Notes: generated from the sequence alone by a model not told the origin. A DNA stretch of 64,000 bases from Vicugna vicugna (GCA_013265495.1 MU057989.1:62001-126000); one strand, 5' to 3'. Counted from the first letter of the stretch, positions 28,101 to 64,000 are shown. Numbers and translations: made by a program.

Positions 28101-30039
28101 AAAGGGAGGTCAGGGGGCTGCTGGTGGGTGTTCAGAGGAGAGGAGAGGAGCCCAGGGGCCAAGCCTGGGGCTGCAAGGTGGAGGGGACAGCTGGAGGAGG
28201 CTGAGGAGGGGGGGCAGGAGGAGAGGGCGGAGGGGAGGGGGCCAGGCTGGTGGCTGCAGGAGCCGCCTCAGAAGGTAGTCTCCTGAGGTGGGTCAGGATT
28301 CAGGTAGCCATGAAGGCTGACCCCAGGGGGAGTGGTCACCAACCACAGGCCTGAAGGGGCTCTGCGAGGAGTCCAGCCAGAGCTATAGCTGAAAGGGGTG
28401 ACAGAAGCAGAGAGCCACTGGCCCAGTGGGGCAAGGCAGGACAGGCTGGTCTCCCTCCTTTCAGCTCCAGCCTTCTGCTGCTGCCTCCCTGGTCAGAACC
28501 ACCAGAGACCCAGGGCCCCTGGCAGAACCAGGGTGTGGGGTGGGTGGAGAGAGTAGCTGCTATGATGGCCCCTGTTGTGTGGTACCTGTGTGGCAGGGGA
28601 CTGTGCCTCCAGCAGGCCTGAGGAGCCCAGGAGGCAATGGGCCCCCAGCCCAGAGTCCTGAGACCTCAATAGAGCCCTGAGGCCTCCACAGAGCCCCATG
28701 GAGAAGGTGCCCAGGGCAGCCCTGTAGACTCCAGGCCAAGTGCACTTGGGTCTCTTGTCCAGGTGACCCTCTTCAGGCAGAGTCCCTTTGAGGTTGGGAC
28801 CCAGCCTCGGCCTTTGGGGAGGGGATCCCAAGAGTCTTGGGGGAATCAGAGTGTGCGGGAAAGAAGATGACCTGGGGTGTTCTCCCCGCAGGGGTGAGCT
28901 CCGATACCTTGAGAAGATGGTCGCAAGAGAGGTACCCGTGAGACCCATCACCCTGGTAAGAGATAAAAGTCCCCACTCCTCACGGTCAGCCAGACCTGAC
29001 CAGGCCCAGCCACCAGCTACCATGACAGGAGCAGGACCCTGGTTGCTTCCAGGACAAACAAAGGCCCCAGGGACCTGTGTTGGTTGGGGAGGGAGGAAGG
29101 TGGGGCACTGGTACCCCCAGACTGAGACCCCAGGACACCTAGGAGCTTCAGCAGACCTAAGGGAGAGGGAGTCCTCAGCCTGCATCCCCTGCTGGGGGTC
29201 CAGGCCTGGCTGGAGCCTTGCCTGAGGAGTCAGAGGGACCTCATTCCCCCAGACCCTGCAGCCCACACCTGGCTCATCCAGAAGTACTCCCACCAGCCAG
29301 TCATGCGTGAGATGCTGCCACATGTCCACTTCTGTCCTCCCACCAGCCCAGGGGGTGGACGGTGTCATCTTCATGGTCTGTGGGAGGCAGGGCTCAGAGG
29401 GGCCAAGTCACTGCCCTAAGGCCACCAGATTGTCACCACAGAGGGCGGAGCAAGGCTGACATCTGACTTGGAGCGCATTCATTCTGCTGAGCTTTGTGGA
29501 ACGGAAGCATCTCTAGCGTCCCTGTCTTTTCTCTGGTTCCTGCCCCCCACCTGTCAACCTGCGACCCTGAGCCCTAAAATCCCCTAACTGTCTCTATCCT
29601 GGAGGGTCACCCTGGGGTCACTCAGGTCACTCCACCCCATTTTTCTCCCATGTAGACAGCGGCTCATGTGTCTCTGAGTTTACTGGCCACAGGATCTGCA
29701 GTGTGGCCCACTGCATTAGTGGTGCTTGCCGGGATCGCCTTCTACTTCTGGACAAAGGTCAGAGCAAGCCTGGGGTTGCATCGAGGGAGGTCCTGGGTTG
29801 GCTGGGGGTGGGGTAGCAGGACCTCCAGCATCACCTTCCCCTGGTGACCGCTTTTCCAGCCTTCACTGTCTCCATCATTTTCAGTTCCTAAGACCGTCCA
29901 CACAAAAGAGAAATTTTATGAAGTAAGTATGAAGTAAGAGCACAGTCTTTCCATCCCATTGGCCCCAATTACAATCCTCATTTCTAGTAGATTGGACCTT
30001 CTTCCTCTGGATGTTTTGGTGCAAAGACAATCCAGAGTA

Positions 30040-30490
30040 GATGCGTTTGTCCCCTAGGGCTGCCGTAATAAATTACCATGAACTATGTGTCTTAAAACAA
30101 CAGAATTTTATTCTTTCTCAGTTCTGGGGTTCAGAAGTCCAAAATCTATAATTGTCACTGCCTCTCAAGGTTCTAGGGGAGGATCCTTCCTGCCTCTTCC
30201 AGCTTCTGGTGTCTCCACTGTTCCTTGGCTTGTGGATACATCGCTCCAATCTCTGCCTCCAACATCACATGCCTTCTTACCTGCGTCTCTGTATCTGCAT
30301 CCCCATCTCCCTTTCTTTTCTCTTTTAAAGACACTGGTCATTGGATTTAGAGCCCACCTGAAATCTATGATGATTTTGTCTTTTGAGATCCTTAACTAAT
30401 TACATCTGCAAAGATCCTAGTTCCAAATAAATGCACGTTCACAGCTATTGGGGATTAAGACTTGAATGTATCTTTGGGGGGACAAAATCA
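30040..30490 (-). mobile_element. MLT1 solo LTR
   Basis: cctagggctgccgtaataaattacca..cttaaaacaacag..acatctgcaaaga. Confidence 0.8.
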
Positions 30491-30870
30491 TACATTTTTT
30501 TACACACAAGGGAGATCATACTACAAATGTGTTAATTTCCATGATGAAGTGGGAAACACACATTTCTCTAATATACGTTACCATCTTACTTAACTCAAGT
30601 AATTAATCATAGAAATGAACATTGATACAATCACATTATCTAAACCCTTAAACTCCCAAACTTGGTCAAATTTCACTGGATTTTCCACTAATGTCTTTCT
30701 CTGGTCCAGGATATAATCCAGGATCCCAAATGCATTTATGTCAGGCATCCTTAGCCCCCTCCAATCAGTGATAGCCAGCTAGAATATTTGTAAGACATTA
30801 GTAATTTGAAATGTATGTGTGATCCAAATTTTCATCAGTCCTATTTTATTTTAAAAATATGAACAGGGTT

Positions 30871-31000
30871 GGGGAGGGTATAGCTCAGTGTTAGTGTGTG
30901 TGCTTAGCATGTAGGAGGTCCTGGGTTCAATCCCCAGTATCTCCATCAATCAATCAATCAATCAACCTAATTACTTCCCCCGAAACAAAAACAAGCAAAC
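30871..31000 (+). mobile_element. tRNA-derived SINE (camelid Vic-1-like)
   Basis: ggggagggtatagctcagtg..gaggtcctgggttcaatccccagt with A-rich tail and near-matching atgaac(c)agggt flanks. Confidence 0.8.
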
Positions 31001-31519
31001 AAAAATGAACCAGGGTATTGAATGTGTGTTCTCATCTGCCAGCTTCCACATAACAATAGCTTGGTTTAAATTTCAAGCTACTAAAAAGAATTGAAACAGA
31101 AACTGAATACTTTAGAAATGAGAACCATCTCGTGTGGATATGTGCACCTGGTTTAAGGCACATTTGTAATCTGATTCCGATGGCATACCTGCCAGAGTAC
31201 ACATCCCTTCTTCACCCATGTAAAGGCCACGACTTTTCAACAATTACACCATCTGATTGAAAAATGTACATTTGGTGGAGCCAGGATCCACTAACCGCAA
31301 CAAGATCAGTATCAGCGATATTCACAAGTATTGCTGAAACAATTAATGATTTTAATGTGAAAGAGGCTAGAAAAATATGCAGAAAGTACATGTCTAGAAT
31401 CAAGGAACAAAAATATTTTAGTTTCACTTTTTGGTATTTAAAATGAAATTATATAAAATAAAGGAAACTAGATATTCAAACCATTTTTGAGGGAGGAATT
31501 TTAATATATCTGCCACTTG

Positions 31520-32000: not shown

Positions 32001-32509
32001 AAACCCTTGAGGCAAAATCCGTGTCTCATCAGGATAGGCCAAGGAGTGAAACTGCGATGAGACAACTGTGCCACAAGGAAAAACAGGACGTATTCTGATT
32101 ATTCAGTAACTGGGGATCGGGTGGAGGCGACGGGTAAGGCCAGACAAACCGAACCCTCCTTCAGCCTTCTGCACACGACCTCTGTTTTTTTCACGGTCTT
32201 CATCCACGTTTCCCATCCACGGACACTTGGTGACTGATGTTCCCGGGGGCCGGGAGGGGGCGCGCGCGGACTCCCCAGTTCCCAGGCGGCGAGGGCGCCA
32301 GGAGTGCCGTCTGCCCCAGCAGACGCCGGACGCCCACCTGGGTCCTTCAACGTGCCTTCTGCAGGGGTGCGAGGCGGCGGCGATTGGGCCGGGAGGGTTC
32401 CTCAGTGATGACCCAGCAGATGACCGGCACCTGAAGGATGCGGGTAAGATCCGTACTCCACCCCGAATTCCAAAATAAATCTTAATATTAAGTGCAGGCT
32501 CCTGTTCGG

Positions 32510-32650
32510 TCTCCCTCCCTCCCTCCTTCTTTCCTTCCTTCTTTCTTTTTCTCTTCCTTCCTTCTCTTCCTTCCTTCCCTTTCTTCCTTCCCTCTCTCCC
32601 CCCCTCTCTCTCTTTCTCTTTCCTTCTTTCTTTCTTTCCTTCTTTCTCCA
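32510..32650. repeat. (CTTC/CTTT)n pyrimidine-rich microsatellite
   Basis: Visible directly in the sequence. Confidence 0.9.
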
Positions 32651-34520: not shown

Positions 34521-34617
34521 TTTTTACTCTCTGTCTTTCTTTTAATAGAGGTACTAGGGATTGAACCCAGGATTCATGCATGCTAAGCATGGGCTCTACC
34601 ATTGAGCTATACCCAGT
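34521..34617 (-). mobile_element. Vic-1-like SINE
   Basis: gaggtactagggattgaacccagg..tgagctataccc. Confidence 0.8.
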
Positions 34618-34828
34618 CAGATTAAATAATTTTTTAAAAAATAGAACACTGCTACTCTTCTCATTCACTTTTTAATTTGAAGATATAGTTATGCAGTGAA
34701 TTTATTATTGCTATTTTGAATGCTTAGATTTCTAATATTGTAAATATTGGTAGATGTAACCCATGTAACAAAAGCCCTTTAAGCTGTTCAATAATTTAAA
34801 GAGTGTAATCACTCTTCAAAGGGGTTCT

Positions 34829-34970
34829 GGAGGGTGGGTATAGCTCAGTGGTAGAGTGCATGTTGAGCATGTATGAGGTTTTGGGTTCAATCCCCAGTAC
34901 CTCCATTAAAAAAAAAAAATCAAAGACCCTCCAAAATAAATAAAATAAAATGGTTAAATTTTTTAAAAAA
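34829..34970 (+). mobile_element. Vic-1-like SINE
   Basis: gggtatagctcagtggtagagtgcatg..gggttcaatccccagtacctccattaaaa. Confidence 0.85.
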
Positions 34971-35220: not shown

Positions 35221-36559
35221 ACATCCTTGGGGAAAATTTTAGCAACATGTTTAAAAAGCCCTTAAAAATATTTGTCTTACTAGACCCTTTTTTGGAATTT
35301 CAGAAAAGGAGATAATCAGAAATGTCAGAAGTTTGGATACAAAGATATTTATAACGTAATAAAATTAGAAACAACCAGTAGTTAGTGGATTATTAATAGA
35401 TTATGGCAAATAAAGTCATGAAGACCTTTGAATGACCCTGGAGAATATCCAGGAAATAACTCGGCCGTGAGAAAAGGGCTGGAGGACTGTGCAAGCCGTC
35501 GCTGCTGAATCGAGGGTGTGAAGCAGGGATCTGCAAAGCCAGGGCAGGGAGAGAGCAGGGAGCCTTTCTGGAGGCGGGTTCGGGTTCTGCTGATAGTTGG
35601 ACTTGAGGAGAAGGAGGGTACAAGGGAACGTGGGAGAACTGGAGGACGCAGAGGATGTAGAAATTGCGGAGAATGTGGGAAATGCCTGAAGCCCAGGGCA
35701 GGTGGGCCTCAGAAGACCTGGACCTGCATCTGCCCGGAGCCCCGGAAGTGGGGAGGGGGTTACTTCCAGCAGCAGCTTTAGAGCGAGAGAAGGGAGGCGA
35801 AGGGGAGGTGTTTTGGCGGAGTAGGGTTTTCTAGAGAGGAGCAGCGTCTTCACTCTGCAAACGTGAGGAAGCGCAGCCAGAAGACTGGGGGCTCCGGCTT
35901 GGAGAAAAGGAGAGGACAGAGGGAGGAGCCTGCGGGGCTGGGGAGGGTCGCGGTGAGAGGAGGGTTCCCGGCGCGGTGCAGGCAGGAGAGGAAGGGGTGT
36001 CGCCGCGCCTGAGGCTGGTGAGAGGCAAGGTGTGCACCAGTTCCGGTGATGTTGGGCAGCTCCGGCCGCCACCCGTCAAACGTCCAGGAAAGCAACCCGC
36101 AGGGCCCGCAGCTCCCTGAGCCGGAGCAATCAGGGCGCCCTCGTCACAGCACGGTCGGAGAACGGCAAGTGTCCAGCGGCTGTGTGCCGAGAATGGGGGC
36201 TGAATCGGTAGGCAACGGCTGGACCAATAGATGAGGGCAGGATCTGTGGGCGTGGAAGGGACTAATAGCGAGGGAGGGACCACTGGCGAGGGCTGGCCCG
36301 AGTATCGGGGAGTGACCAATAGCGAGGATGTTGCGACCTCAAGGATGCTAGGCGGAGCAGAGTCTGTGGCTTTGATGAACATAAAGGAAGTTCTTCCCTC
36401 AGCTCGCTCTGAACGACGGAGACGAACAAAGCCTTTAAACAAATGCTCCGGCTTCCTCCGCTGGGAGCCAAGGTCAAACCCTGGGGAAGTTCCGGTGGTC
36501 TCAATTAAACTCTCTTGTGCTGGGAGAACGGCGTCCAAAACTCGAGGCGGGTCTGGCTG

Positions 36560-36960
36560 ACACTTAGCCCACCAGGCGCCACCGCCCCAAACCGGCATGG
36601 TCCCGCCCACTCGCGAGACCTGAGCCCGCCCCCGCGCGCCGATTGGTCAGACCGCCAGTTCTGCTCAGTGTGGGGAAGACCCGGAGAAACGGAATTCGCC
36701 CAAGGAATGGGCTCCTCAAGCCCTGCTGCGCATGCTCGCGCCGTGACCCCAGCTTGAGGTGACTGCCCAAACCCAGGCGGGGGCCCCAGGCACGGAGGCT
36801 GAGGGACCTGCCGCGGCTCGGTCTCCGGAGAGGGAGGGCCCTGCTGCCGTCGCCACCCAGCCGGTGCCCGGTGAGGACGGGCCCTAGCGGATCGGGGAGG
36901 GTCTCGGGTCCCAGCCGGCCTCCCCCGGGGGTCCCCAAGGGCTGCTGATGCTAGAGGGGA
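36560..36960 (+). promoter_or_regulatory. FLYWCH2: FLYWCH2 CpG-island promoter and non-coding exon 1 (donor at 36871)
   Basis: GC boxes, inverted CCAAT at 36641, NRF1-type TGCGCATGC at 36727, donor CCG|GTGAGG. Paralogous to 52200-52700. Confidence 0.7.
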
Positions 36961-37904
36961 GGCGCCCCCCGGCTCTGCAACCCAGCGCTCAAGTCGCCTC
37001 CCTATCCTTCACCAGCGATTCAGCTCCTTTCTCCTCTCTCCTCGTTACCCCCAACCAACCCGACTCTGGGACTGAGCCCTCATACCCTAAATTTAGGGAT
37101 CCCCACATTGGTTTGCCTTTCCTTGACCGTGGCCGCCTCCCTCAGCACTGCCTCGCCCTTGCACACATCCCCAGTCCTGTCCCATTCTTGTGTCTCTAGA
37201 GATCCTCCCAGGAGTGGCAATTGGAGGTCTGAGATGTTGGGGCTGGGGACCCACTCTGGAGGCTTGGTCGGGTGGTGGCGGTAATGGTCGGAGAGAAGAG
37301 GAGCGGGAAGTGGGGGAGGGCATTTGGGTGCAGCATAGACAGGTCTAATGACAAGTTACAATGAACTTGTAAGGAAAAGTAAAAGTAATTAGGATGCCAA
37401 GCTATGGTGATTAGGGGAAAAGAGGTGCCATCACATGAAATTCCCACTTAGGGGGAAGCTCTTCCCTGCCCAGTACAAAGTAGCAATTCTTGACCCATTT
37501 TGGGTCACTGCTGCTTGGAAAATCTCCCTGTAAGGATGTGTACCTGCATACCTAAGTGAGTAGATCTTCCCACCAGCAATCCAATCACAGCTCTCCAAGA
37601 ACTACATGGGACCGTGATTATAGAAGGGGCAGCTGTCAGTATCACTGGTAACTTTTGAAAATAAGGACTTCACCTTTGCCTGTCTGTTATTAAGAACCTC
37701 TGCCAAACTAGCCACTACTGCCATTATACAGGTGAAACCAGCCCAGAGAGGGTGAGGGGTTTGTCCTTATAGATGAGGATGAAGATGTTGCTGGACATTG
37801 ATGGTATTTCTCTCCCATGTATATGAAGGAGATTCTCTTGATCCATCCTAAGCTGCCAGGCAATGATCCTGGCTTTCAGAATCTCCCCATCAAGGACTGG
37901 ACCT

Positions 37905-38395
37905 CGTACTACTTACCTATTGCTGCCGTAACAAATTACCACAAATTTAGTGGCTTTAAACAACACAGCTTTGTAATAATCTTACAGTTCTGGAGCTCAG
38001 AAGTGTGACATGGGCCTCACTATGTTAAAATCAAGGTGTGTACAGGGCTTTCTGGGGACTCTAGGAGAGACGGTCTGTTTCTATGTGTTTTCTGGAGGCG
38101 TCCAGCATTCCTTGCCTCATAGCCTCCTCCTACATGTTCAGTGTCAGCAGTTTCGAATCTCTCATCTCTCTGACCCTGCTTCCATCATCACACTACCTTT
38201 TCTCTTCTGCTGCCTGCCTTTTCTGCTTTTTAGGACCCTTGTGATTGTGATTGGGCCCCCTGGATATTCCAAGCTACTCTAATTAGTAATCTTCATGCCT
38301 TCTGCAACCTTAATTCCCCCTTTGCCATGTAAGGTAACATACAGATTCCAGGGATCAGGACCTGGACATCATTGGGGGGCATTATTCTGCCTCTC
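37905..38395 (-). mobile_element. MLT1 solo LTR
   Basis: attgctgccgtaacaaattaccacaaatttagtggctttaaacaacac. Confidence 0.8.
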
Positions 38396-38904
38396 AAGGT
38401 GTCTAAGAGGCTCCTACCAGTTCTTAACATTGTGTGATTTGGGGTTTATGCTGAACCATCTTATACTCCTGGGTCTCCCTTGTGTAGACTACTATCATGA
38501 TGGCTGGTTAGGACAGATGGGTGACTAGAGACCCATAGCAACTTCGAACCATCATATTGGGGATTTAGGTGGAGCATGTAAAGTGAGTAAAATAAGGTAG
38601 ATATTAAGCTTTTTGGTCTTTTTAATTCATTTATGCTTCACTTCTAAAAATTCTGTTAATTCAATGAATTTTTATTGAGTAAAAACTTAATTTTCAAAAT
38701 ATGTGTTTTAGACTTAAAATAGCTGTGTCTCTACTCTTCCATTAACATCTTCAAAATAAATTGCTAGAATGTTAGGGTTGAATCCAGAAAAGAGACTGAT
38801 CCAGGCTGAAGGACTGTCCACCCTTGCACATGGGGTGACTAAAGAACACTTCAACCATGAACAAGAAATCAGAAACTTCTCAAGCAGAGGGCCCCTGGCA
38901 GCAT

Positions 38905-39082
38905 CAATGTTTCACGAAGTATCAGAATCAAATAGGCTACTGGTTTAAAAACAAATGTAGATTCTCAGGTCCCTCTTCAGTCCCTCTGAGTAAGAAGTCT
39001 TGGAGTAGAGTGGTCCAGGACTGCATTTTTAACAAGAATTCTGGGTGATTCTTAGGTATAGTGAAGTTGGGAAACCACTGTT
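38905..39082. mobile_element. MER5A-like MITE
   Basis: tcagaatca..ctgcatttttaacaag..gtgattct..gaagttgggaaaccactg. Confidence 0.65.
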
Positions 39083-39109
39083 TATAGACTTAATTTCCCT
39101 TTTCTTAAT

Positions 39110-39950: not shown

Positions 39951-41478
39951 AAAGAATTTTATCACTAGCTCTTACAATTAAGTCTATGATCCATTTAGAG
40001 TTGATTTTTTTTTTGTATAGTGTGAGGAAGGGGTCCAACCCTGGAGTTTCATCCCCAGACTACAGAAGTGTGAACTGCTGGCCAGGGGTGTGCACCAGAG
40101 CCAATCAGAGTGTTGGGGCAGGGGCCTCTGGGCAGGACTTCCCATCATAACCCTTTCCTGCCCAGAGTGGCTCTGCCGCAGGAGGCACTGGTGGTGTCTC
40201 TTCTGCTGGACCCCATGTCTCCCCAGGTCCCCAGTACCACCACGTTGCCCTGTAGGGCAAGATGAGCAGGGCTGGGAAGGACCACATGGGAGGAGCAGAG
40301 AGTGGCTAGTCAAGGCACTGAACCAGGGACAGGAGGGATAATGAGACACCAATCCTAGCCGTGTCTGTGGTCAACTGACTTGTTACCAGGCAGCATTTAC
40401 CAGGGTGGGGCACACTCCCTGGAGGTGGAGGCCCTGCCTTCATGTCTAGTGGCGAGGGACTGAGAAAAGAAGCTTGCAGTGGACAAGGCACCCCAACCAA
40501 CCACTGGCCTTGCACCTCAGGCTCCACTCAGGGATGATGAGGTCTTGGAAAACTTTGGGATGCTAGGTATGGACACCTCAAGCCATATACATCTGTTCCA
40601 AAGCAACAGAACTGAAAGCCAGTTTGGAGAAACAAGTCCAGGGGGACAAATAAGAGTCCATGGGCCTTGCTGCTGCCTAAATCCTGGACAGGGTGGATGA
40701 GATGTCTGCTAAGGCAACAGTGTTGTTCCTGGGCTAAACTGTAAACTGAGAAAGATCCTACTATCTGCCCACCATCCAGTCACCCCCAACAGACAAAACA
40801 GCCACTACACTGATGCCCCAGGGCCTGGATCTCCAGGCCTGCCCTGCCCGAGTAATCTATCCTTTCTGCTTCTCCAGACCAGAAGCCAGGGAGCCCTCAG
40901 TGACCACGGATTCTCTGGACACCCCCACAGCCCTGTCCCCTCTCAGCTGAGGCAGCGCCAGCACCAGCTTAGACACAAGGTTGCTGCCCTCATGGGGCCC
41001 TGTCATCCTGTGAACTCTAGGTGGCCCTGGGCCTCTGGCCTGGGATGGGGGCTGGATGTAGTTGTGAATCCAGAGAGTCCCGCCTCCCAGGGCCAGGCTC
41101 AGAGTAACTCACAGCTGTCAGTACCTTGGTCACCCCAGCAGCCCCTTGAGAACCCTGTATTTGGCACATTTTACAAATAGGGAAAGAGGTTTGGCTGAGA
41201 GAGGTGATGGACCCAAGGCAGCCAAGAGAGCAGAAGTGCTGGCCCAGAGTTCTCGAGCTCCATTCAGTTCCTTCCCCACCTCTCATCGCCGGGGGCCCTG
41301 ACCTCCATCCCGGATATGTTTTCCTGAACGCAGGCCCAAGGGCACCTCACTGATGGGATTTTCCCTCCTCCCTTAGGACGCAGCCCCTGGACTGCCAGGT
41401 TCCTCACCGAGGAGGTGGAGGAGAAATCCATCAGCTGGGGCCTAAGCGTGGCCTGAGGGCCAGGCCATCAGTCCCGGG

Positions 41479-41809
41479 ATGCCCCTGCCCGAGCCCAGCG
41501 AGCAGGAGGGTGAGAGCGTGAAGGCCGGCCAGGAGCCCTCCCCTGAGTCCCCTGAGCCAGGCACAGATGTCGTCCCCGCAGCCCCCAGGAAGCCCAGGAA
41601 GTTCTCCAAACTGGTCCTGCTGACGGCCTCCAAAGACAGTGCCAAAGTGGCCGGGGCCAAGCGCAAAGGAGTGCACTGCATCATGTCCCTGGGGGTGCCT
41701 GGCCCAGCCACCCTCGCCAAAGCCCTCCTTAAGATCCATCCTGAAGCTCAGCGGGCCATTGAGGCAGCGCCCCAGGAGCCTGAGCAGAAACGCAGCAAGC
41801 TGGACGCAG
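41479..41809 (+). CDS. FLYWCH2: FLYWCH family member 2, first coding exon (exon starts at 41377)
   Basis: MPLPEPSEQEGESVKAGQEP...KFSKLVLLTASKDSAKVAGAKRKGVHCIMSLGVPGPATLAKALLKIHPEAQRAIEAAPQEPEQKRSKLDA matches FLYWCH2 as recalled. Donor AG|GTGAGG at 41810, phase 1. Confidence 0.92.
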
Positions 41810-41919
41810 GTGAGGCCCCGGTCCCAGCTGGCAAGACGTGAGCAAGACCCACCTGGGGCCGGAAGTCCCCTGACACCTGGGCAGCCAGGGGGGACAGACA
41901 GGCTAGGTTGGCCCTGAAG

Positions 41920-42130
41920 TCTACACGTGTGCTGGGAACGTTGCTGCATGCATCTGTCTATATTACGTGTCAGTGTGAATCTGTGTGTCTGTTGGCTTTC
42001 ATGCATGTGTATGTTTGTCTAAAGTTCTGTCTGTCCATATTTGACAAGAAGTCCTTGTACGTCTGTGTTCCTGGGCCTGTTTCTGTCCATGTCTGCTCTT
42101 ATGTGTTTATGTGTTTATGTGTCTTTTTCA
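41920..42130. repeat. Degenerate (TG)n-rich low-complexity tract
   Basis: Visible directly in the sequence. Confidence 0.6.
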
Positions 42131-42989
42131 TGAGCTGGGGGTGTCCGCAGTCACAAGCCTAAAGTTCTCAGGGGACCCAAGGGACCCCTCAGGCTCCATC
42201 ACCCACTAGATGGAGCTGCACTCAGGGAATCAGGGACCCCAGAGGCTGGAGGCCCCTCTGCCGCATGCCGGGCTCACCCATGAGCCCTTCTTCTGGTCAG
42301 TCCCGCTCCAAGTGCCTCCTCATGGCCGTCTGCCCCTGCCCAGAGGAGAGAGGGTTCTGTCCTCATGATCTTTGGGGAAGCAGGGCTCAGAAGGGCCAAG
42401 TCACCACACTGAGGTCACCAGCAAGATCACTGCAGTGGTAGGGAGTGGCATCTGGTTCAGAGCCCATTCCTCCTGCTGAGCTGGGTAGGATGGGCCATCT
42501 TCAGGGTCCCTTCTACCCCAGGGCCTGAGACCTCTGCCCGCTTCTCAGATCTGCCCAGGCTCTGGGGCCATGTGGGCCCCACCTCGTCTGGCACCTTTGT
42601 GAGAATTAGGACAAAGCCACCCTTCCTCAGATGGAGAGAGGGAGAGCAGGACGGGGCGATGTCTCGGCCCCGTGGGCTTCCCTGAGCAGGCGCTCTTGGG
42701 CAGTGAACAACCTCTCAAACTGCCACTCTGTCTTTACCTCCATGCCTTCCAGTGTTCCCCGCCTCCTGCCCCGCCCTGGGCCAGGCTGAGGGGGTGGCAG
42801 CAGTTTCCTGGAAACAGCCTGTGTCCCTGGGCCAGTGGCCTTTGGGAGCATGTTTCTCGGGTCAGCAATTACTTTTCTAAGTCAGCCAACGGCTTCCCAC
42901 CCCTCCTCTGGCAGGGAGGACCCCAGGTTTGACGCCCCGCCCCTCCCTTTTCCCCTGACCACAGCCTGACCCGCCCCCTTCTCTTCCAG

Positions 42990-43093
42990 GCATTGAAGAA
43001 GACGGAAGGCTGGCGGGGCAGCATGCCCCCAGGCCCTCGGGGGGCGGGGAGGAGTCCCCCGCGGGACCCATCGTGCCCAGCGAGGCCCCGTAG
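42990..43093 (+). CDS. FLYWCH2: FLYWCH2 terminal coding exon
   Basis: Strong acceptor cccttctcttccAG at 42988-42989. Phase-1 join gives GIEEDGRLAGQHAPRPSGGGEESPAGPIVPSEAP*, total about 144 aa. AATAAA at 43267. Confidence 0.75.
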
Positions 43094-43255
43094 CCCTGAC
43101 AACCGGGGGTGCGTCCTTGCTGGGTCAGTGAACTTAGCTGCAACTTCTTCACGTTCCAGTGGGCTTCTGCTTGGGGCCTAGCCGCTGATTTTCACTTTAA
43201 ACATTGTAATTTTTTTCAGATCATGCATTATTTACTTTTGTAAACAGAAAAAAAA

Positions 43256-43272
43256 ATTAAAAAGAGAATAAA
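43256..43272 (+). terminator. FLYWCH2: FLYWCH2 polyadenylation signal(s)
   Basis: ATTAAA near 43256 and AATAAA at 43267-43272. Confidence 0.65.
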
Positions 43273-44780
43273 AGAAGCTGTACATTAGGTCCCATCATGG
43301 ATGGGTTTTTTAAAGTCCATGATTCTGCATGCTTTGCGGCCCCAGCTTCAACCCCACCAGCCCTCACCTGGCCATTCCCAGGGCTTCCTGGCCTGAGACA
43401 TCCCTCAGACCCAGGAGGGCTCTCCAAGGGCCTCCATCCCGCACGGCCTCATACCCCTCGGACCCCTCAGCCTGGAAAACCAGCCACTGATTCAGAAACT
43501 AGGTGGGATCTCTGAGGTCTCCACATTCTGCTGCTTTTGGTCTCTAGCCCCTGGGAAGCCAATCTCACCCATCCCTGGAGAGCCCTCTAGGGCCAGTCCG
43601 CAAGAGGCGTCAGCCTGCTGCTTCCTGCTGGACCCTCAGAAAAGTCATCTCCTCCAGGAAGCCACACAGGCCTGACAGCCCCCTGCACAGGGGCCATGAT
43701 GTTCATGGCAGCCCAAGGTTCTGCTGAGGAGGAGGTGGGCAGTCTGCAGTCTGAGGGGAGACCCCAACAGTAGTGTATGTTGCCCCTGTAATGTTCCTTC
43801 TGGATGATTTGAGGGCTGAGGGAGATTCCTGGGACCCCAAGCTCCTCCCCACATCCCCTGGGTGCCACTCTGCTGGAGGAAGAGATGAAGAAACACAGCT
43901 CCCCTACTTCAACCAGAAGTTGGGATCCCCTCCCAAAGGCTTCAGCCTCATGTTGCTTCAGCCCATGTGGTCTTCATTCTTTGAAAACTCTCATTGGGCA
44001 GAAGGAAATGGATTACTTTTGAAATGTAAAGTTTAGAGACTTAGGTTTTTAAACAACATTTTCCAAATCTACTTGGCATCTGTTGACTCCTTAGGGAAAG
44101 TTCCAGGGCGCATTTTCCTTGCCCAGCTCTCCAGTTTGCTGTGTTACATTCACAGCATGGTTGTCTGTCACATTTAGATTCTGTAACCAGAACTTGAAAA
44201 GTTCTTTTGTCTTCACTCTCTATTTAGATCCCTGTTCCCCACCACGTTTCTCCTTGCCCGAGGTTCTGAGTCATCTTCTTGGTGGGTGGGTTTTGTCAGA
44301 TGGCAAGAGCCCATGAGGGCTTGCTCAGTGTTGGACGTGTGAGGGTGGAGTGCTCCCCACCCCCTGCAGGAGTGGAGGGGCTGGCCAGGCTGGATTCCTG
44401 CCCTCAGCTCGGCCTCCAGGCAGTCCTTGCCTGAGCAGGTCAGAGAGGACTGACTTCTGCCTGCCTGCTGGGCAGGGTCACCAGCGGGCATCCACTCCCC
44501 TGTGCTTTAGTGTGGCACCATGAACCCTCCTGCTGTTACCAGGGAAACTTTGGCTGGGGTCCTCACCCTTCAGCTGGGGTCCCCAGTGAGAGGGCCTGAT
44601 TGACTCAGTGCCCCCCTCCCCTGGAGGCTGCATAGGGGTACAGCAAGGGTCCACCTCCCTCTGGGGGCCTAAGTTGCCAGTGGTGCCAGTCACCTGCCTA
44701 GAAGGTGACCAGTACTGCGGGGCAGGAAGCCACTGCCAAGCCAAGCCAGAAACCACATTCTGGGTCCGGAGGTGTTAAGA

Positions 44781-44869
44781 TTTTTTTTTTAATGGAGGTA
44801 CTGGGGATTGAACCCAGGACCTCGTGCATGCTAAGCACATGCTCTACTACTGAGCTATACCCACCCCCA
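44781..44869 (-). mobile_element. Vic-1-like SINE
   Basis: aatggaggtactggggattgaacccaggacctcgtgcatgctaagcacatgctctactactgagctataccc. Confidence 0.85.
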
Positions 44870-50365: not shown

Positions 50366-52189
50366 ATACAATAATAAACCCTTTATGTCTTAACATATTC
50401 CTATGGCAATTACTAATTTTCCAAAGTAAAGAAATTTAATGAGAGGAATGGCATTGTTTTACATTTTTGCAAATCTCTTTAGTGTAGGTTTAATGGAAGA
50501 TTATAGGTTCTCATATGTGCTTCGAGGCATTCAACCCATTACATGTCATGTAACCTTTGGAACATCACACAGGGACTTACTGGAACATCACACAGGGACT
50601 TACTGGAACCCCAGACTACTCTTTGAGAACAATTTCTTTACTGTAAAATTCATATTCTTCCCCTTGTAATTAATAAGTGTCTTGTGGGGAGATACCTACT
50701 TTGGGACTATGTAAATAATAGCTCCTTGTTAAACTTTCACCCTCTGTTTTTTAGCTATTGATTTTTGCCAGAATCAGTTATAACTTACGATGGTCTCTAA
50801 ATGGTGATTTTCTGCATCTTTCTTTCTGCATTTTTTTTAGTTGGCATTCTACTCTAAGAAAGAGCTTTCCTTAAGACAAAACGAGACCTGGAGATGGCTG
50901 TAGGAGAAAGGTGTGTAAACCATGATAGGAGATATATTGGAAATGGATGCAGAGAAGAGGAGGGTGAGAAGTTGAAGAAAACCAAGACGGTCTAAATATG
51001 TGAAAGAAGAGATAAATGCAATCCAGTCAGAAGCCTTCACTAAGAGATTACTCTGTATTCAATATGCGGGATAATTTCTTCCCAGCCCACACTCCCCTAA
51101 GAGAATTTTTCTTGGGCTTGTCCTAGAAAGGGTGACTCCTTTCTGATTGATGACAGGAGGTTTGCTAAAACAAGGGTCAAGCTGCCATAGTTAGAATTTC
51201 TTTCCTGGGTATTTATACGTGGGCTACAGTGTCTAAGTTTGCTGATCTTGTGCAGTCATGCTGGAAGATTTAGATTTCATGGGACAGGCATTGAAGGCAA
51301 TGTAAGAGTGGATGATTAATCAAGAAAGCTGGTCTATAGTGAGAGAAGGTGGGACAAAGCCATAATGAGGTGGCGGCGAGATGGGGGTGGGGAGGTGGGG
51401 GGAAGAAGAGAAAAGCCAACTGATGGCATTGTAAACTTGTTGTCTTTGGCTGTACTTTTTGAAGTTAGGGTCTTTGGGATGCCACTGCAACCACTTCTCA
51501 TGTTATTTTGAGTTTCTTTTCTTTATAACCAAATGAACTTAACTATTAAAAAGTTCAAGGAATTCTGAGTTTGGGAACCAGTGGAAAAAATATCCGATGT
51601 GTAGGTTGGGGATCTGCAAGGTAACTTTTTAGTTTGCTTGAAAGCCAAGATGGAAAAACATTAGTTTTCTCCAAGCATAGGGACTGAGGGTGATAGAGCT
51701 CACTTCGCAGCAGCAAATGGAAACTGACATTCAAGATTAAACCTAGACAGAGTTGGACTTGGGAGACTATGTTATATATTCATAATTGGTCTGTTTGCTT
51801 AACGTTTGTTCTCAAATGATTCTCACACTGAAGTAAAGCAAATATATGTTTTTAAGAGATATCCTTTCTCCCCATTTACTTATTTATGTCTCTATCAATC
51901 GTGAATTCTTATTTTATTCAAAGTTATAATCTGTTATCATTATTTATTTTGAATCTCAAATTGGCCTAGCTTTGAAATGGGTCATTTTAAGATTTCAATG
52001 AGGTGCGTAAGAAATTTCCTTCCGCTGGCTAAGAAAAGTAACGGGCCTAAGGATGCATTTACAAAAGTGCCTCTGCTCAGTGAGCACACAGTCAAGTACT
52101 GGGGCAGGTCTGGGGCCTCAGTTCAGCTCCCCGAACTCCCTTCTCTGAGCGCGTAGGACCCAGGTTCCCCAGTCCCTCAAGCAGGACCG

Positions 52190-52760
52190 AGCAAAGCCCG
52201 GTCCCAAGCCGCCGCCGCCCAATCCTGGGCCTGCCCCGCCTCTTTCGCGAGCCCTGGCCCCGCCTCTCCACGCCGATTGGTCAGGCAGCCAGCTAGGCAT
52301 CCAGCACAGAAGACCAGGAGAAGCGGAGTTTAACCAGGGAATGGTCCCCCGCGGCCCTGCTGCGCATGCTCGCTAGGAACCCTCTAGCGCGCTCCTAGAG
52401 GCCGGCTCCACCGCGGGGCGGCGCGAGCGGCACGGGGCTCGCTCCCGAGAGGGCGGGTGGGGGCGGGGAGTGGGCACCCGGGTTGCGGTGGGCGGAGGGG
52501 CCTGGCCTGCGAGGTCGACGCCTGTGGCTGCAGCGACCCGAGGCCAAAGGACCCGCCGCGGCTTGGTCTCCGGAGAGGGAGGGCCCCACTGCCGTCGCCG
52601 CCCGGCCAGTGCCCGGTGAGGACGGGCCCCAGCAGATCGGGGAGGGTCTGGGGCCCCTCGGCGTGGCCGCGCAACCGATCAGGCTCTCCGGGGGTCCCAA
52701 GGGCTGTTGATGCTGGGGAGGGGGTGTCTCTGAGTCCCGGCGCTCAGGCTGCCTCCTTGT
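52190..52760 (+). promoter_or_regulatory. FLYWCH1: FLYWCH1 CpG-island promoter and non-coding exon 1 (donor at 52616)
   Basis: GC boxes, inverted CCAAT near 52275, TGCGCATGC at 52361, donor CCG|GTGAGG. Paralogous to the FLYWCH2 promoter. Confidence 0.7.
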
Positions 52761-53878
52761 CTTTCACCTGCAATTCGCTGCCTCCTTTCTCCCCACCTCT
52801 CCTTCCCCCAACCCACCCGACCCTCGGACTGAGCCCTGACACCCCAAATCAGGGAACCCCACATTCGCCTACTTTTCCTTGACCCTGTTGGCCCCACCCG
52901 GTACCGCCCCGGCCCTGGCATCCACCCCAGCCCCATCCCATCTTTGCGGATCTGTAGGTCCCAGTGACCTTGCACTTTTTGCTGTTGTTACACCTTCTTC
53001 CACCGCTAAATTCCTGACTGCCTGTTGGGACTTTCAAACTTTTTTGACTCAACTTACAGTGAGAAATATATTTTACATGCCTGTAAGTGCAGGTTACTGA
53101 AAGATAAGTTTAAAGGGAGGTGCTTACCCTAACCTCACATGATCCAGCCAGATCTACTCTACGTGGGTTCTAATTCTATCCTCTTCTATTTTGTTCTATT
53201 TTATTCTACCCTATCCTATTCTGTTCTGTTCTTTCCATTCCAAAATGCTAACCCAGTCAACTGATTACAGGACCTAATGAGTCTGACCACAGTTTGAAGC
53301 CCATGCTTTAACCACCAGTCTTTTGCTTCCTTTACTCCTTGCCTTGGAGGATGCTGAGCTCCAATAATCAGATTATCATGTATAAACGTCAATTCCAAAG
53401 AAAGGGTATGTTTTTGTTGTTTTGATGCTTCTGCCTTTTAGGACCAAAATCATTTCCAGGACTTAGTTGGATTCGGTCAGGTTTATCTTGTTCCTCACCC
53501 TAAAGCTTGCAGCTGGCCTTGGGGAAGAGACAATATATGGAGGCTAGACTGTGGAGTGCTTATAACAGAGAGATGGAGACAACTTTCATTGTAGAGGAAA
53601 ATGATTAGAGTTGAGCTTTAGGAAGTCAGCGCTGTGTCGGGAGAATTGGATGCTGAGCAGGGAGATCATTAAGGAGATGGTGGGGATCGAAGCCCCGAGG
53701 TGATGTGAGGTGGGGAAGGTGGTGGAAGATGGTGTGATCAGGTGTTGAGAGATCTGGGGACACAGTAGGGTTGGCATGGGAGGCGTGAAAATAACGAAGA
53801 TTGTGATGTAGGAGGATTGCGCTGTTTGGGGGCTGGAATCTCCCTTTCTGTGTCCTCTATGTGTAAGTTGTTTTGAAA

Positions 53879-54046: not shown

Positions 54047-55879
54047 CTTTGGAGTAGAATTCTTTGGAGGGATCACTGCCACCTTCAGCCTCTCCCAGGA
54101 ATCATGCCTGTATGCACACTCAGAGATTGCACGTAACCATAGGAAGGTCCATGAGCCAGTCAGTGTGCACCTCTAAACTTCAGAGCTCGTCAGTGGCAGG
54201 TGGTGGGGGACAGCTTTTGGAATCATCCAGAAGCTTTTGCAAATATCAGGACCTTCTCTCCTGCCCCTTGCACTATTCAGAACCGCTGCTGGGCTTGGAC
54301 AAAACACTCCTTGTTCTTACATGATGATTCACAGCTTATAGAAGAATTTCACATACAGTCTTTCATTTGCTGCTTTTCCTGTTTCACAGGTGAAATCAGC
54401 CCAGAAAAGTGATGGGATTTGCCCCAGGTCTTCCACCCAGCAAGCCAGCGTTAAGGACGGGTGTTGGTGGATGGTGATGGTCATTCTCAGTCTCGTGTAT
54501 GAAGGTAATTCTGTTGATCTACCATCAGCTGCCCAGCAAGGCTCTGTGGTTCAGGATCTTAGGGCTTGGAGCCACTGGTGTCTGAGAGGCATCTCACAGC
54601 TCGTAATATTGTGTGTCTCTTGGGAGTTAGGTTCATCAGAGCAGGCAGTCTTGAGTACTTCAGTTTGGGGGCAGGAAAAGAGCACAGAGATTGATGAACC
54701 ATGAAGTGTGAGGCTCTGGTACTTTCCATTTACATCTGCCTGACTAGAAAATACTCTAGCCACTCAATGAATCCTTACTGAGTAAAGATTGAATATTATA
54801 AAGTAAACACATTAGAGCCCAAGTATTTACCTCAAAACAACACCATCTGAAATTTAAAAAATACATTTAAATCCACCTAGATAAATATACAAGTGTATAA
54901 GAAATTGAAGTTTCATAAAATAATACTCTCTTTTGTTGCATGCAATGCAGATTGGTTATTTCCTGTGTAATTTTAACAATTGCTGACTAGAACCCAAAGA
55001 TTATAAAACCAGTGACCAGGGAGATTTGAAAAGCAGAGACTTAGACCAAAACAAAGGAAATAAAACTCTTCCACACAGAAAGAAAATGAACGTGCGTGAA
55101 AGTTTTTACTTAACTCATCAATCAAATAACTGGCAAGATCTTACAACCAGTTACAAGAGAATCCAGAGAAGATTCTAGAAGCTGTAGGTCAGACATATTG
55201 ACATGAATGTATACATGGAGACAAAACTGGCTTCTTCCAGGACAGGAGAAATTACTTACCTGCCTATACTTATTTACACGGAGAGAAGGGGAGAATGTGT
55301 CTGTAGACTAGAATTATTTTGCGTTGTTCTGTCATCTGTACAGAGCTGCAAAAACAGCTCAAATGTAGTAAATGACTAGACTCTAAAAGGCTATGTTCTA
55401 CACAAAGCACAGTTTTCCACTGAAGCACAAATTTCCCCTCTGATCTCATAATCTCAATGAAAGACAGTTTTTCTACTTTTTATTTATTTTTTATTTCTTA
55501 AGAAGCCAAGTTTTGTTTAATTGTTAAATATACAATACATACAAAAAGTATATGTATAATTTTAAGACAAATAAAATGAATACCCATATATCCTCTATGC
55601 AGTTAAAGAATCAGTTATTACTGGGCCTTCAAAGTCCCACCCCAACCATCTGTTCCCCTACCCCAAAGGAAATCATTATCCTAAATTTTCTGTTAATTAT
55701 TCTTTTAGAACTTGCTGTATATGTGGGAGTCTCTACTTAATGTACTATCTCATTTTTTCCTGTTTTTAAACTACATAGTTGGCCTCTGACTGCATATATT
55801 CATCTCTGACTTGGTTCTTTCATTTAATATTGTTTTATGATTCATCCATGTTGATACTTGTAATTATAATTCAACTAAC

Positions 55880-55971
55880 TTTTTCTTTTTTGATGGCAGT
55901 ACTGGGGATTGAACCCAGGACCTCCATGCATGCTAAGTATGCACTCTACCACTGAGCTATACCCTCCCCCC
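55880..55971 (-). mobile_element. Vic-1-like SINE
   Basis: gtactggggattgaacccaggacctccatgcatgctaag..actgagctataccctcccc. Confidence 0.85.
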
Positions 55972-56778
55972 TCAATGAAAGTCATTTTTTATGTTGATAT
56001 GAGGCTGGTCCCATGAGATTTGGCCTGACTATTTACACAGATGTGGCAGGCACGTTAATTCACTTCCTGGGCCTTCTTGAATTTGCTTTGCTGGAAGTCT
56101 CCATAAGGAATCTCAGATTCGATTTTTTAAAGTCTGATATTTATTATTCCTAGGTGCTAAAGCCATGTCCAGCAAGCTCTCGCCCCCAGATTTCACCTGT
56201 ACTGCTTAAAAATTTGGGCAAAGTCCACCCTCCTTGAGGTCCCCCAAATACCTTAATGTGTCTGCAACTTGTTAAATTGTTAAAGGATCGTTTTAGAAAG
56301 ATGCAGTCATGACTCTCCCGCTGATATAAAATAAATGGTACTGATTTTATTTAACACCTTGATGAGGAAACCTACAGGATGTGACAGATTCAATGCGATA
56401 ATGCATGTAAAACACTTCATGTGGTGCTGGTACAAAGAAAACCTCAAATCCTTCTTAGGTTAATCACTTAGCTTTGGGCTTCCTAACGTCTGTTCCAGTG
56501 TTTCTCAGAGCAGAGCTCATGATCCACCAGTACGAGAGCCTCACGGGGTACTTGTTAAAAATCCAGAATCTTGAATTCTGCTCTAGACCCGCCGGCAGAA
56601 TTTCAGATGAGAAATCCAGGCATCTGCATTTTTATCAAGTGTCCTGGGTAATTCTTAATGGAGACGAGAATTCCATATGCAAATAACTGAAATAAAAGTT
56701 TCGTGAACATTGTACTTAACTTCATCTGTGGGTGCGCTCTTTATGTTCTGTTTCATTTTTTAAAATACTGCTCTTAAG

Positions 56779-61544: not shown

Positions 61545-61945
61545 AAGAATGTCTATTACTGCTGTGTAACAAATGAGCCATGATCTTGCTGGCTTAAAAT
61601 AACAGTAGTTTATTATTGATCAGGTTTCCATGGGGTGCCTGGGCTGGTTCCCCTAGGCTCCTTCTTGTGGCTACAAACAGCTAAGGGGTCTACTGAGCTG
61701 GTCAGTGCAGATGGTTTCTCTCCATGCCCCGCAGCACCTCCATCCCCTACATGTGGCCTCTCATTCAGTTTCCTTCCCTGGAGTCTCAGGGTCATGTCCA
61801 TAAGGGTGGGGGCTTCCAAACCCCCACAGTGGGCTTCTGTCATACTCTATTAGTTACAGCAAGTGACCAATCTGGGCTGAAGACCAATCCAGATTCAAGG
61901 CCACATTGCAAAGGAGCCATTATACTTTATGGAAGGATTTGTGGT
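61545..61945 (-). mobile_element. MLT1-like LTR
   Basis: ctattactgctgtgtaacaaa..ggcttaaaataaca..cttctgtcatactctatt..cccagattcaagg-like segment. Confidence 0.6.
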
Positions 61946-62469
61946 CAGTAAACAATCAACACGTTAAGTCCCTTATGTGGTTGAGAATGGGAACTGTCAA
62001 TCAAATCTAAATTTTAGCCCAATGTGAGTACCCATGACTTTACACAGCCTGTGGTCAGCCACAGTTCAAGGTCTTTTGTTGTACTGGAACTTTTCCCATA
62101 TCCCTTGAGGTATATGGATACCTTAAGCCTTTTAAACAAATTTTAGTTGAGAAAATTACACTGTCTCCTGACTCAGGTTACCCATGACTCTGGGTACAGT
62201 TCCACGGGAATCGTGGGGGCTATTTGCCATGCCAACCTGCGCTGGTCATGGTTGGTCATACCAACCCTCGCTGGTCTGGAGGAGGCCAGGTTTCAGCTTC
62301 TGGTCGTCTGAGACTGAGGCGATTGGTGTGTAGGGGTCCCTGCAGCCTCCACTCCTGTCCGTTGCAAGGCAGGGACCGACGGCCAGGTCCTGTAGGAATG
62401 TGCGTGCTGGGTGAACAGTGACCGCAACGTTTTGGTGGCCTGAGTTGTCTGAAAGGCCTTCTGTGGAAG

Positions 62470-62850
62470 GGAGGGCCGGCTTCTCCGCACCCTTACGCCC
62501 TGTCGATGGAGGACGCAGGGAGGTTAAGGAATCGAGCCCGCGTTCCTTTGCCCTGGGACCGGAGCACAGCAGCCCCGGAGGCGGGCTACCGGAGGGTGAG
62601 CGCCGGGGCCAATCAGCGTGCGAGGGCGGGGTGGCCTGAGGGCGGGGCCTCCCCGTAACCCTTTCCTGCCCGAGCGGCTCTGCCTGCGAAGGCGCAGGCG
62701 CTGTCTTACTGCGGTGGCCCCCAAGTCCCCTGTACCGCCATGTCGTCCTGTGGAGCGGAATGGGGAGGACCGGGAAGGACCGCACAAGAGGAGCAGAGGT
62801 TGGGTTGTCCAGAGGCCGGACCAGGACGAGAAGGATAACGCTGGAAGTGT
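62470..62850 (+). promoter_or_regulatory. Intronic CpG-rich element, candidate alternative FLYWCH1 promoter
   Basis: GCCAATCAG near 62608 followed by two GGGCGGGG boxes. Local CpG enrichment. Confidence 0.5.
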
Positions 62851-63903
62851 CCCGTTACCTGAATTTCCATGAGTCTCGCCCCTCAGGACAGGGATTCGCT
62901 GCTGCCCGGGGCTGAGCGGGCGTGTAGGGCATGGGTGTTGGGGAGAAGTTGCAGGGGACGTGGCGCCCTTCTGGCCTTCAGCCTTGGCTGTGTGTCTACG
63001 AGGACCTAGGGGCCCCGCGCTTGGACTGACAGACCTTGGGGAGCTGAATGTGGGCCCCAGGCCACAAACTGTCAGAACAGAAGTGAAGGGCGGGGGTATT
63101 GGAAACGCAGAACTTGGGGTAGGGGTGACAGCTCACAGGCTGGAAAACTGAAACGTGAGGAAAGGCCATAGGCTGTTTCTGGGCTATTGCTGAGAGGTGG
63201 GAAAGACCCTGACATGCACCCACCATCCAGTCCCCGAGAAGACAAACCCCACACTGATGCCCCAGGGCCCGGGTCTCCAGGCCATCCCTGCCCCTGGAAT
63301 CCATCCTTTTTGCTTCTCCAGACCAGAAGTCAGGGAGCCTTCAGCGACCACGGATTCCCTGGACACCCCTACAGCCCTGTACCCACTCAGCTGAGGCAGC
63401 GCCAGCACCAACTCGGACAAGGTCGCTGCCCTCATGGGGCCTTGGCATCCCGTGATCCTCTGGCCTGGGATGGGGGCTGGATGTAGTTGTGAATCCAGAG
63501 AGTCCCGCCTCCCAGGGCCAGGCTCAGAGTAACTCACAGCTGTCAGTACCTTGGTCACCCCAGCAGCCCCTTGAGAACCCTGTATTTGGCACATTTTACA
63601 GACAGAGAAAGAGGTTTGGTCAGGGAGGTGCCAGACCCAAGGCAGCCAAGAGAGCAGATGCACTGGCCTAGAATTCTCTAGCTCCGTTCAGGTCCTCCCC
63701 CACCTCTCAGCCCCTGGTGCCCTGACCACTACCCTAGATCTATTTTCCTGAACCCAGACGCAAGGGCACCTCCACTGATGGGATTTTCCCTCCTCCCTTA
63801 GGACAGAGCCCCTGGACTGCCAGGTTCCTCGCCGAGGAGGTGGAGGAGAAATCCATCAGCTGGAGCCTGAGCGTGGCCTAAGGGCCAGGCCATCAGTCCC
63901 GGG

Positions 63904-64000
63904 ATGCCCCTGCCTGAGCCCAGTGAACAGGAAGGTGAGAGCGTGAAGGCCGGCCAGGAGCCCTCCCCTGAGTCCCCTGAGATGGGCACAGATGTCGTCC
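63904..64000 (+). CDS. FLYWCH1: FLYWCH-type zinc finger 1, start of first coding exon (exon starts at 63802; truncated by window end)
   Basis: MPLPEPSEQEGESVKAGQEPSPESPEMGTDVV, near-identical to the FLYWCH2 N-terminus. The FLYWCH1 call rests on recalled synteny; the zinc fingers lie outside the window. Confidence 0.8.
   Translation, partial: MPLPEPSEQEGESVKAGQEPSPESPEMGTDVV

Follow-up and report, generated by a model that had tools for sequence, protein, structure and literature searches.

The question raised by this locus is how FLYWCH2, whose protein carries no FLYWCH zinc finger, came to lie next to FLYWCH1, whose protein carries several. We addressed this question in a 64,000-nucleotide stretch of vicuña DNA (Vicugna vicugna, GCA_013265495.1 MU057989.1:62001-126000), referred to below as the window. 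It begins with a minus-strand arginine/serine-rich (RS-rich) gene, continues with FLYWCH2 (36.4-43.3 kb), and finishes with the beginning of FLYWCH1, which runs from 52 kb to the window end. That end (position 64000) falls inside the first coding exon of FLYWCH1, and the following intron of this gene lies beyond it. We judge, at a probability of about three in four, that FLYWCH2 arose long ago as a truncated tandem copy of the 5' portion of FLYWCH1, recruited a last exon, and has undergone recurrent gene conversion with FLYWCH1. A first-pass annotation of the same DNA had described FLYWCH2 as a tandem partial duplicate with a breakpoint just after the first coding exon. This interpretation is probably right in outline, with a boundary that is bracketed rather than fixed. 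The parts of the two genes on which the argument depends are the following.

36394-37205 (+): FLYWCH2 promoter-like CpG island and exon 1, with a donor-like GT at 36871
41377-41809 (+): FLYWCH2 first coding exon, encoding FLYWCH_N; acceptor at 41376/7, ATG at 41479, phase-1 donor at 41810
42990-43290 (+): FLYWCH2 last exon; stop codon ends at 43093, AATAAA at 43267, 3' end approximate
52016-52961 (+): FLYWCH1 promoter-like CpG island and exon 1, with a donor-like GT at 52616; a FLYWCH1 model from a mustelid matches this segment
63802-64000 (+): start of the FLYWCH1 first coding exon, with ATG at 63904; cut by the window end

Exon 1 of FLYWCH2 is presumed from the paralogous FLYWCH1 donor at 52616. 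The spliced FLYWCH2 product (P0001, 144 amino acids) is the protein named Vicugna pacos FLYWCH family member 2. Pfam assigns to it PF15423 (FLYWCH_N) alone (E 1e-48) and zero FLYWCH fingers, whereas the FLYWCH1 protein P0205 has FLYWCH_N plus four FLYWCH fingers (PF04500). Human FLYWCH1 is described as having five fingers and as located on centromeric chromatin marked by trimethylated histone H3 lysine 9 (H3K9me3) (PMC8373943). Residues 1-110 of FLYWCH2 align to residues 1-111 of FLYWCH1 and the alignment ends at a common exon boundary, so the derived open reading frame is a truncated version of that of its paralogue, as is characteristic of a partial duplicate.

The relationship extends well beyond the coding exon. 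Six homologous blocks had been noticed by eye in the same order on the plus strand, and all six were recovered by both self-BLASTN and nhmmer. Their limits and identities, as measured by HOXD70 local alignment, are given first, followed by additional blocks inside the long intron.

29138-29523 and 42158-42511 (+): block I, 234/342 identical (68%); spacer DNA with a MIR-like 3' part, and the first secure position of unit 1
32221-32501 and 46461-46783 (+): block X, 77%
35608-36255 and 47105-47727 (+): block Y, 75%
36394-37205 and 52016-52961 (+): promoter and exon 1, 73%
40077-40343 and 62585-62840 (+): intronic element, 74%
40711-41575 and 63162-64000 (+): coding exon with its flank, 86% over 867 columns
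37502-37884 and 54070-54559 (+): additional intron block, within the 64-68% range of these three
38388-38712 and 54570-54816 (+): additional intron block, within the same range
38898-39054 and 56510-56657 (+): additional intron block, within the same range

With three or four extra collinear blocks in the long intron, nine or more same-strand blocks occur in order; the intron pieces as a whole are 64-70% identical. Altogether, 4491 of the 12438 bp of copy 1 still align, and the unaligned remainder of both units consists largely of interspersed repeats that are each present in one unit only.

Block I deserves particular scrutiny, and we take its 3' part to be MIR sequence. The whole block scores 10173, compared with maxima of 2343 in 300 shuffles and 2219 among 836 real control pieces. 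When the MIR-like part is removed, the remaining 5' part still scores 3644, a value reached by none of 300 shuffles and none of 1150 controls. The first-pass annotation had named loss of the alignment after MIR masking as a result that would refute it, and block I withstands this check. Furthermore, the MIR-like part scores 4984 against its own partner and at best 1826 against any other piece of the window; therefore, the match does not reflect two independent repeat insertions. Collinear, same-strand, non-coding homology that goes beyond shared repeats is the signature of a tandem segmental duplication.

The repeats themselves provide some further observations. Rfam reports only five tRNA-like short interspersed element (SINE) hits (30874-30945, 34550-34613, 34834-34905, 44793-44864, and 55894-55966), which are copies of one short interspersed repeat and occupy no site common to both units. 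A repeat of about 0.5 kb at approximately 37905-38390, presumably of the long terminal repeat type, breaks up an intron block in copy 1 only and has relatives at 24.7-25.1, 30.1-30.5, 33.1-33.5, and 61.5-61.8 kb. Because it is present in copy 1 only, it was inserted after the duplication and could help to date that event.

The position of block I locates the junction between the units. As had been proposed, this block is upstream spacer in copy 1 and lies inside the last intron of FLYWCH2 in copy 2 (42158-42511). The accompanying claim that unit 2 starts about 300 bp past the exon donor agrees with block I beginning 348 bp after the donor at 41810, but the breakpoint itself is only bracketed. 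Two intervals are relevant.

41810-42158 (+): interval holding the junction, with a TG-rich stretch at about 41915-42145 that lacks a copy-1 counterpart
28981-29105 (+): segment by which unit 1 may extend further upstream, with 60% identity to 41791-41907 at the start of the FLYWCH2 last intron

The match of the possible extension scores 1994, which is reached by 1 to 12 of 1500 shuffles and by one of 468 and one of 748 real controls. Intron read-through peptides from other species mildly favour it (1/94 controls scored higher). If it is genuine, homology would possibly reach back to the donor itself, and the TG-rich stretch at 41915-42145 would then be a later insertion. We treat the extension as no more than possible because its G-rich stretch, when aligned to an unrelated piece, reaches 1868, near the observed value. 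A comparison of FLYWCH1 intron read-through peptides with the FLYWCH2 intron was uninformative, since primate-type and rodent-type FLYWCH2 tails also failed in it; usable tails were available for 22 of 23 FLYWCH2 and three of five FLYWCH1 models.

A junction no more than 350 bp past the exon donor leaves the upstream copy without zinc-finger exons. The earlier proposal that FLYWCH2 copies only the 5' part of FLYWCH1 is borne out in that FLYWCH_N is its only domain and its first coding exon is homologous in full to the first coding exon of FLYWCH1. However, a partial duplication and a full duplication with later loss of the fingers predict identical sequence, and a single genome cannot separate the two. 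It is conceivable, then, that the tandem duplication took in the entire gene and that a deletion later removed the zinc-finger exons of the first copy, in which case the junction would be a deletion breakpoint; the final sequence would be the same, and the window offers no FLYWCH1 intron with which to compare the junction. We consider this history unlikely because it requires two events, remnants of zinc-finger exons are absent from 41810-42158, and a FLYWCH2 tail profile found no match among 106 FLYWCH1 proteins (best E 0.25).

Two other readings concern the DNA just upstream of, and around, copy-1 block I. According to one, the coding exon has a third copy, now decayed, at 28.7-29.0 kb, and the unit arose through unequal crossing-over between older exon copies, with block I already intronic. 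Positions 28674-28805 indeed align to 41528-41662 on nearly the same diagonal (80/130, 62%; nhmmer E 0.014), with a score reached by none of 300 shuffles, none of 796 controls, 0 to 9 of 1500 exact k-let shuffles, and none of 240 GC-matched controls. However, this match emerged from a scan of about 90 queries, and the putative exon was missed by protein profiles (23+23 exons), by back-translated DNA profiles (E up to 20), and by Pfam. It also fails to align to the FLYWCH1 exon start (183/300 shuffles reach its score), and a neutral copy of a constrained exon would be expected to show higher identity than block I, whereas this one shows lower. Therefore, we regard a third copy as very unlikely.

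According to the other, copy-1 block I is an intron of an unannotated upstream gene for a membrane protein, which would make FLYWCH2 a true two-gene chimera. A 102-bp segment at 29656-29757 (+) is flanked by AG and GT as judged by eye and encodes 34 mostly hydrophobic residues, and donor-like sites occur at 28956 and 29923. However, a search at E up to 10 among 184 candidate proteins of 71-2000 amino acids gave no match, although this is weak evidence, and Pfam gave none either. Three runs recorded as RNA and three presumed to be RNA contain 0.05-0.17 of the words of 25400-30050, values that argue neither way. Homology to copy 2 is likewise absent downstream of block I, and such a chimera seems most improbable.

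The first-pass annotation overlooked that the last exon of FLYWCH2 was apparently recruited from inside unit 2. This exon sits between blocks I and X of unit 2, and the matching place in unit 1 is spacer. No counterpart was found in copy 1, where 327 to 351 of 1500 shuffles reach the best score, elsewhere in the window, or in FLYWCH1 among 106 proteins, and homology between the units downstream of block I is not significant. The exon is also poorly conserved, with an identity of 0.40 among 28 FLYWCH2 orthologues. The lack of a counterpart and the low conservation fit recruitment from non-coding DNA, and we infer that the source was the unit-2 spacer.

The duplication is old. Among the 120 listed of 164 hits, FLYWCH2 is named in Laurasiatheria, Euarchontoglires, Afrotheria, and Xenarthra, which are all four placental superorders. 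A profile search (HMMER) of 1.84 billion representatives returned 22 hits, all near placental sequences, and a metagenome scan for mammalian FLYWCH1 DNA gave four loci, none with a BLASTN match to the window. Kimura two-parameter distances (K2P) are 0.28-0.58 across the old blocks, whose identities are 62-77%, and 0.39-0.58 in those that look neutral. At a substitution rate of about 2e-9 per site per year, the latter values would fit an age of roughly 100 million years. In addition, carnivore gene models (cat and mustelid) match their own orthologous copy of block Y and the promoter better than the paralogue. The best reading of these data is a duplication older than the placental radiation. 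The tandem structure that had been called a visible birth of FLYWCH2 stands, but the event is not recent, as judged by the K2P of 0.39-0.58 and the presence in four superorders. The exon block, by contrast, looks much younger than the duplication as a whole; it would mislead if used for dating, and the discrepancy points to gene conversion.

Identity along the pair is strongly uneven. In copy-1 coordinates it is 62% at 40464-40665 and 84% at 40711-41012, rises to 100% over the 144 intronic base pairs at 41032-41175 (= 63457-63600), and is then 82% at 41177-41348 and 94% at 41351-41575 (= 63776-64000). K2P accordingly runs from 0 to 0.58, with values of about 0.2 at the intron end. The segments that precede the two coding exons are the following.

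40711-41348 (+): FLYWCH2 intron end, 83-100% identical between the genes, with putative older conversion strata at K2P of about 0.19-0.20
63162-63801 (+): FLYWCH1 intron end, containing the identical tract 63457-63600

No perfect run of 144 bp was reached in 20000 permutations, the longest being 101. Mosaic identity, tracts beyond chance, and the inclusion of non-coding sites are the marks of gene conversion. The 144-bp tract is a candidate for the most recent conversion, or else an assembly error, and the strata suggest at least two conversion events in the vicuña lineage.

We then compared 23 FLYWCH1/FLYWCH2 pairs from placental mammals (17 same-species, 6 within a family or suborder), which were chosen by hand from the listed proteins and include no rodents, for which no FLYWCH1 exon was listed. 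Over residues 1-48, the two genes differ by 0.123 within lineages and by 0.194 across lineages, a contrast reached by none of 20000 permutations. The tree of these residues forces at least six label changes and rejects gene monophyly (approximately unbiased test, p-AU 0.005), whereas residues 52-110 split the genes at 100/100 with a single label change. Within the limits of a short protein-level alignment, the paralogues thus group by lineage at the start and by gene thereafter. Derived residues or indels are shared by both genes in pangolin, afrotherians, sloth, tree shrew, marmoset, and a bat. FLYWCH1-type diagnostic residues never exceed two of 25 in any of 109 FLYWCH2 rows, and one deer FLYWCH1 bears three FLYWCH2-type residues at positions 52-54. 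A further candidate, FLYWCH2-to-FLYWCH1 conversion in shrews, was withdrawn: the model is a chimeric isoform, and a second isoform from that species carries an exon of its own. These patterns point to recurrent gene conversion that is limited to the 5' part, halts at a strongly conserved motif specific to FLYWCH2, and occurred separately in several lineages. The first-pass annotation missed the mosaic character of the pair.

The high identity near the exon could instead combine an assembly error, producing the perfect tract, with purifying selection shared by the two protein starts. The tract, known from the assembly, is about one read in length, chimeric gene models do occur at the FLYWCH locus, and a fusion-detection paper labels the pair "Problematic" owing to paralogous matches (PMC12859485). 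However, identity is still 83% across the roughly 460 bp of intron that flank the tract, well above the 62-70% of other intron blocks, and selection cannot account for the same derived residues and indels in both genes of one lineage. We find this combination distinctly unlikely.

Beyond the exchanged region, FLYWCH2 is under strong constraint. Residues 42-100 have an identity of 0.94 among 28 orthologues, and over residues 52-110 FLYWCH2 evolves about 3.5 times more slowly than FLYWCH1 (0.118 versus 0.409). An AlphaFold model is of low confidence (predicted local distance difference test 59.6, predicted template modelling score 0.21), too weak for a fold search; it tentatively places two predicted helices at residues 76-95 and leaves the rest disordered. 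The ESM Atlas returned its own family at 0.95 and BRCT-type rows under 0.9. Our tentative view, held at clearly less than even odds, is that FLYWCH2 is small and largely disordered and relies on its conserved basic/amphipathic motif for its action, which would more probably consist in binding and modulating a partner than in binding DNA.

The history that we favour would comprise four steps. First, before the placental radiation, a head-to-tail duplication would have copied the FLYWCH1 spacer (blocks I, X, and Y), promoter, intron, and first coding exon, an event that accounts for the collinear structure described above. Second, the upstream copy would have retained the ancestral promoter and acquired a new acceptor, stop codon, and poly(A) signal from the unit-2 spacer between blocks I and X; the last exon is plainly present, and its origin is what we infer. 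Third, as the orthologue comparisons indicate, FLYWCH2 residues 42-100 became different from those of FLYWCH1 and were strongly constrained thereafter, whereas the recruited tail continues to drift. Fourth, the direct repeats, which are 22 kb apart, may recombine non-allelically now and then, as the observed pattern suggests. Repeated conversion would homogenise about 0.7 kb of intron end, the 5' untranslated region (UTR), and the first 36-50 codons, independently in several lineages. Tracts that overwrite the FLYWCH2-specific motif (residues 42-100) would not be retained, whereas those confined to the end of the intron, the 5' UTR, and the low-complexity beginning of the protein would be tolerated.

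Several points weigh against this history. Regarding ancestry, no marsupial or monotreme name occurs among the 120 listed of 164 hits or among the 120 listed of 162 longer hits, and a species name was obtained for one of the ten looked up among the 22 HMMER hits; the ancestral state and the direction of change are thus presumptions. The argument for a spacer origin of the last exon is its position. Regarding conversion, the N-terminal tree has 48 columns and three starred branches, and FLYWCH1 is strictly nearest to its own FLYWCH2 in only eight of 23 rows (12 with ties). Residues 52-110 are also slightly closer within lineages (790/20000 permutations). The hand-picked pairs, six of them cross-species and none from rodents, consist of gene models, which can be chimeric, rather than genomic DNA, and those identical over residues 1-48 (tree shrew and marmoset) are known as such at the protein level, not as DNA. 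Likewise, the 144-bp perfect tract is known from the assembly and not from reads.

The gene pair might also be viewed as a single locus in which either of two first coding exons can be used. Since the phase-1 donor that closes these exons is the same in both, omission of the FLYWCH2 last exon from a transcript that starts at the FLYWCH2 promoter would allow in-frame splicing to the FLYWCH1 finger exons. Gene models that fuse the FLYWCH2 exon to the FLYWCH1 fingers exist in mouse, five voles, a shrew, and a desman (P0128, P0129, P0258-P0261, P0231, and P0121), and represent either read-through transcripts or annotation merges. A FLYWCH2-FLYWCH1 pattern is also listed in human fusion data (PMC12859485). 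If this view were true, conversion would, over some 100 million years, have let the acceptor, 5' UTR, and protein start of either gene stand in for those of the other, and selection would shield a FLYWCH2 motif that is deliverable with or without the DNA-binding module. We consider it improbable.

Several of the duplicated blocks are candidate regulatory elements. Blocks X and Y and the promoter are CpG-rich in both units, with CpG observed/expected ratios of 0.79 (copy 1) and 0.73 (copy 2) for block X and 0.66 (copy 1) and 0.70 (copy 2) for block Y. The cat FLYWCH2 gene model starts in X and Y and matches copy-1 Y better than copy 2. Judged by these features, the two blocks may be alternative first exons or enhancers, and block X of copy 1 is a candidate regulatory element. 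The FLYWCH1 copy of the intronic element (62585-62840) has CCAAT and GC boxes and a CpG ratio of 0.75, whereas the FLYWCH2 copy (40077-40343) has retained the CCAAT box and lost its CpG (ratio 0.08). Because CpG is kept only in the FLYWCH1 copy, the better reading of the element is an internal promoter whose FLYWCH2 copy has decayed, and we regard it as a candidate internal promoter of FLYWCH1 that was apparently lost from its paralogue. In addition, the mustelid FLYWCH1 model has a 5' extension, 21 residues of which match 54390-54452. This segment is a possible alternative 5' exon inside an intron block common to both units.

The RS-rich gene is represented by a 2234-residue open frame at 4588-11292 (-) with a CpG island at about 19.0-20.3 kb, and it is arranged head-to-head with FLYWCH2. 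We take this frame to be SRRM2, and we presume that the head-to-head arrangement of SRRM2 and FLYWCH2 is the mouse-like gene order, the human order having been altered by an inversion. The sole assembly gap in the window is a run of 38 N at 1794-1831.

If the favoured history is correct, the locus is a readable fossil of gene building in placental mammals, in which a truncated copy, a recruited exon, and a newly constrained motif can each be discerned. The starts of FLYWCH1 and FLYWCH2 would be unusable for dating or separating the genes. The first 50 codons and the adjoining intron would be prone to cross-reaction in gene trees, short-read mapping, fusion calls, primers, and guides. FLYWCH2 residues 42-100 (94% conserved) are the place to seek its function, and literature searches found no study dedicated to this protein.

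Truncated duplication and gene conversion are both well known, but the case of FLYWCH2 and FLYWCH1 appears to be undescribed. We found no paper on the origin of the pair, on the limits of its two units, or on conversion between its members, although supplementary tables of conversion or gene age, or subscription papers, may list it. FLYWCH2 occurs in no title or abstract among the matches listed, and no paper was found that combines FLYWCH1 with "gene conversion". Word searches of two FLYWCH1 papers, PMC8373943 among them, did not find FLYWCH2, and "FLYWCH2-FLYWCH1" was found only in the fusion-detection paper (PMC12859485).

Three known systems provide the closest comparisons. Partial gene duplication with recruitment has been defined, with fog-2 from ftr-1 and Drosophila Hun from Ballchen as examples (PMC3449122). 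As in Hun, the 5' part of the parental open reading frame was copied and a short terminal exon apparently came from adjacent non-coding DNA (33 residues in FLYWCH2, about 33 in Hun). Unlike in fog-2 and Hun, the FLYWCH2 copy is tandem, the recruited exon would lie in the spacer of the second unit, and the event is old and placental-wide. SRGAP2C and ARHGAP11B are 3'-truncated paralogues that retain the ancestral promoter; like FLYWCH2, they kept the promoter and first exons, lost downstream exons, gained a new 3' end, and are associated with fusion transcripts to neighbours (PMC6169893). However, they are human-specific and nearly identical to their parents (PMC6169893), whereas the spacer blocks of FLYWCH2 are 62-77% identical and the protein has its own conserved motif. 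Finally, HBD and HBB show concerted evolution and chimeric fusion genes in placental mammals (PMC4041002). Like FLYWCH2 and FLYWCH1, they are pre-placental tandem paralogues that have exchanged sequence repeatedly and independently in many lineages. Both globin genes are full-length (PMC4041002), whereas FLYWCH2 is truncated and its zone of exchange ends within one exon, at about codon 36-50.

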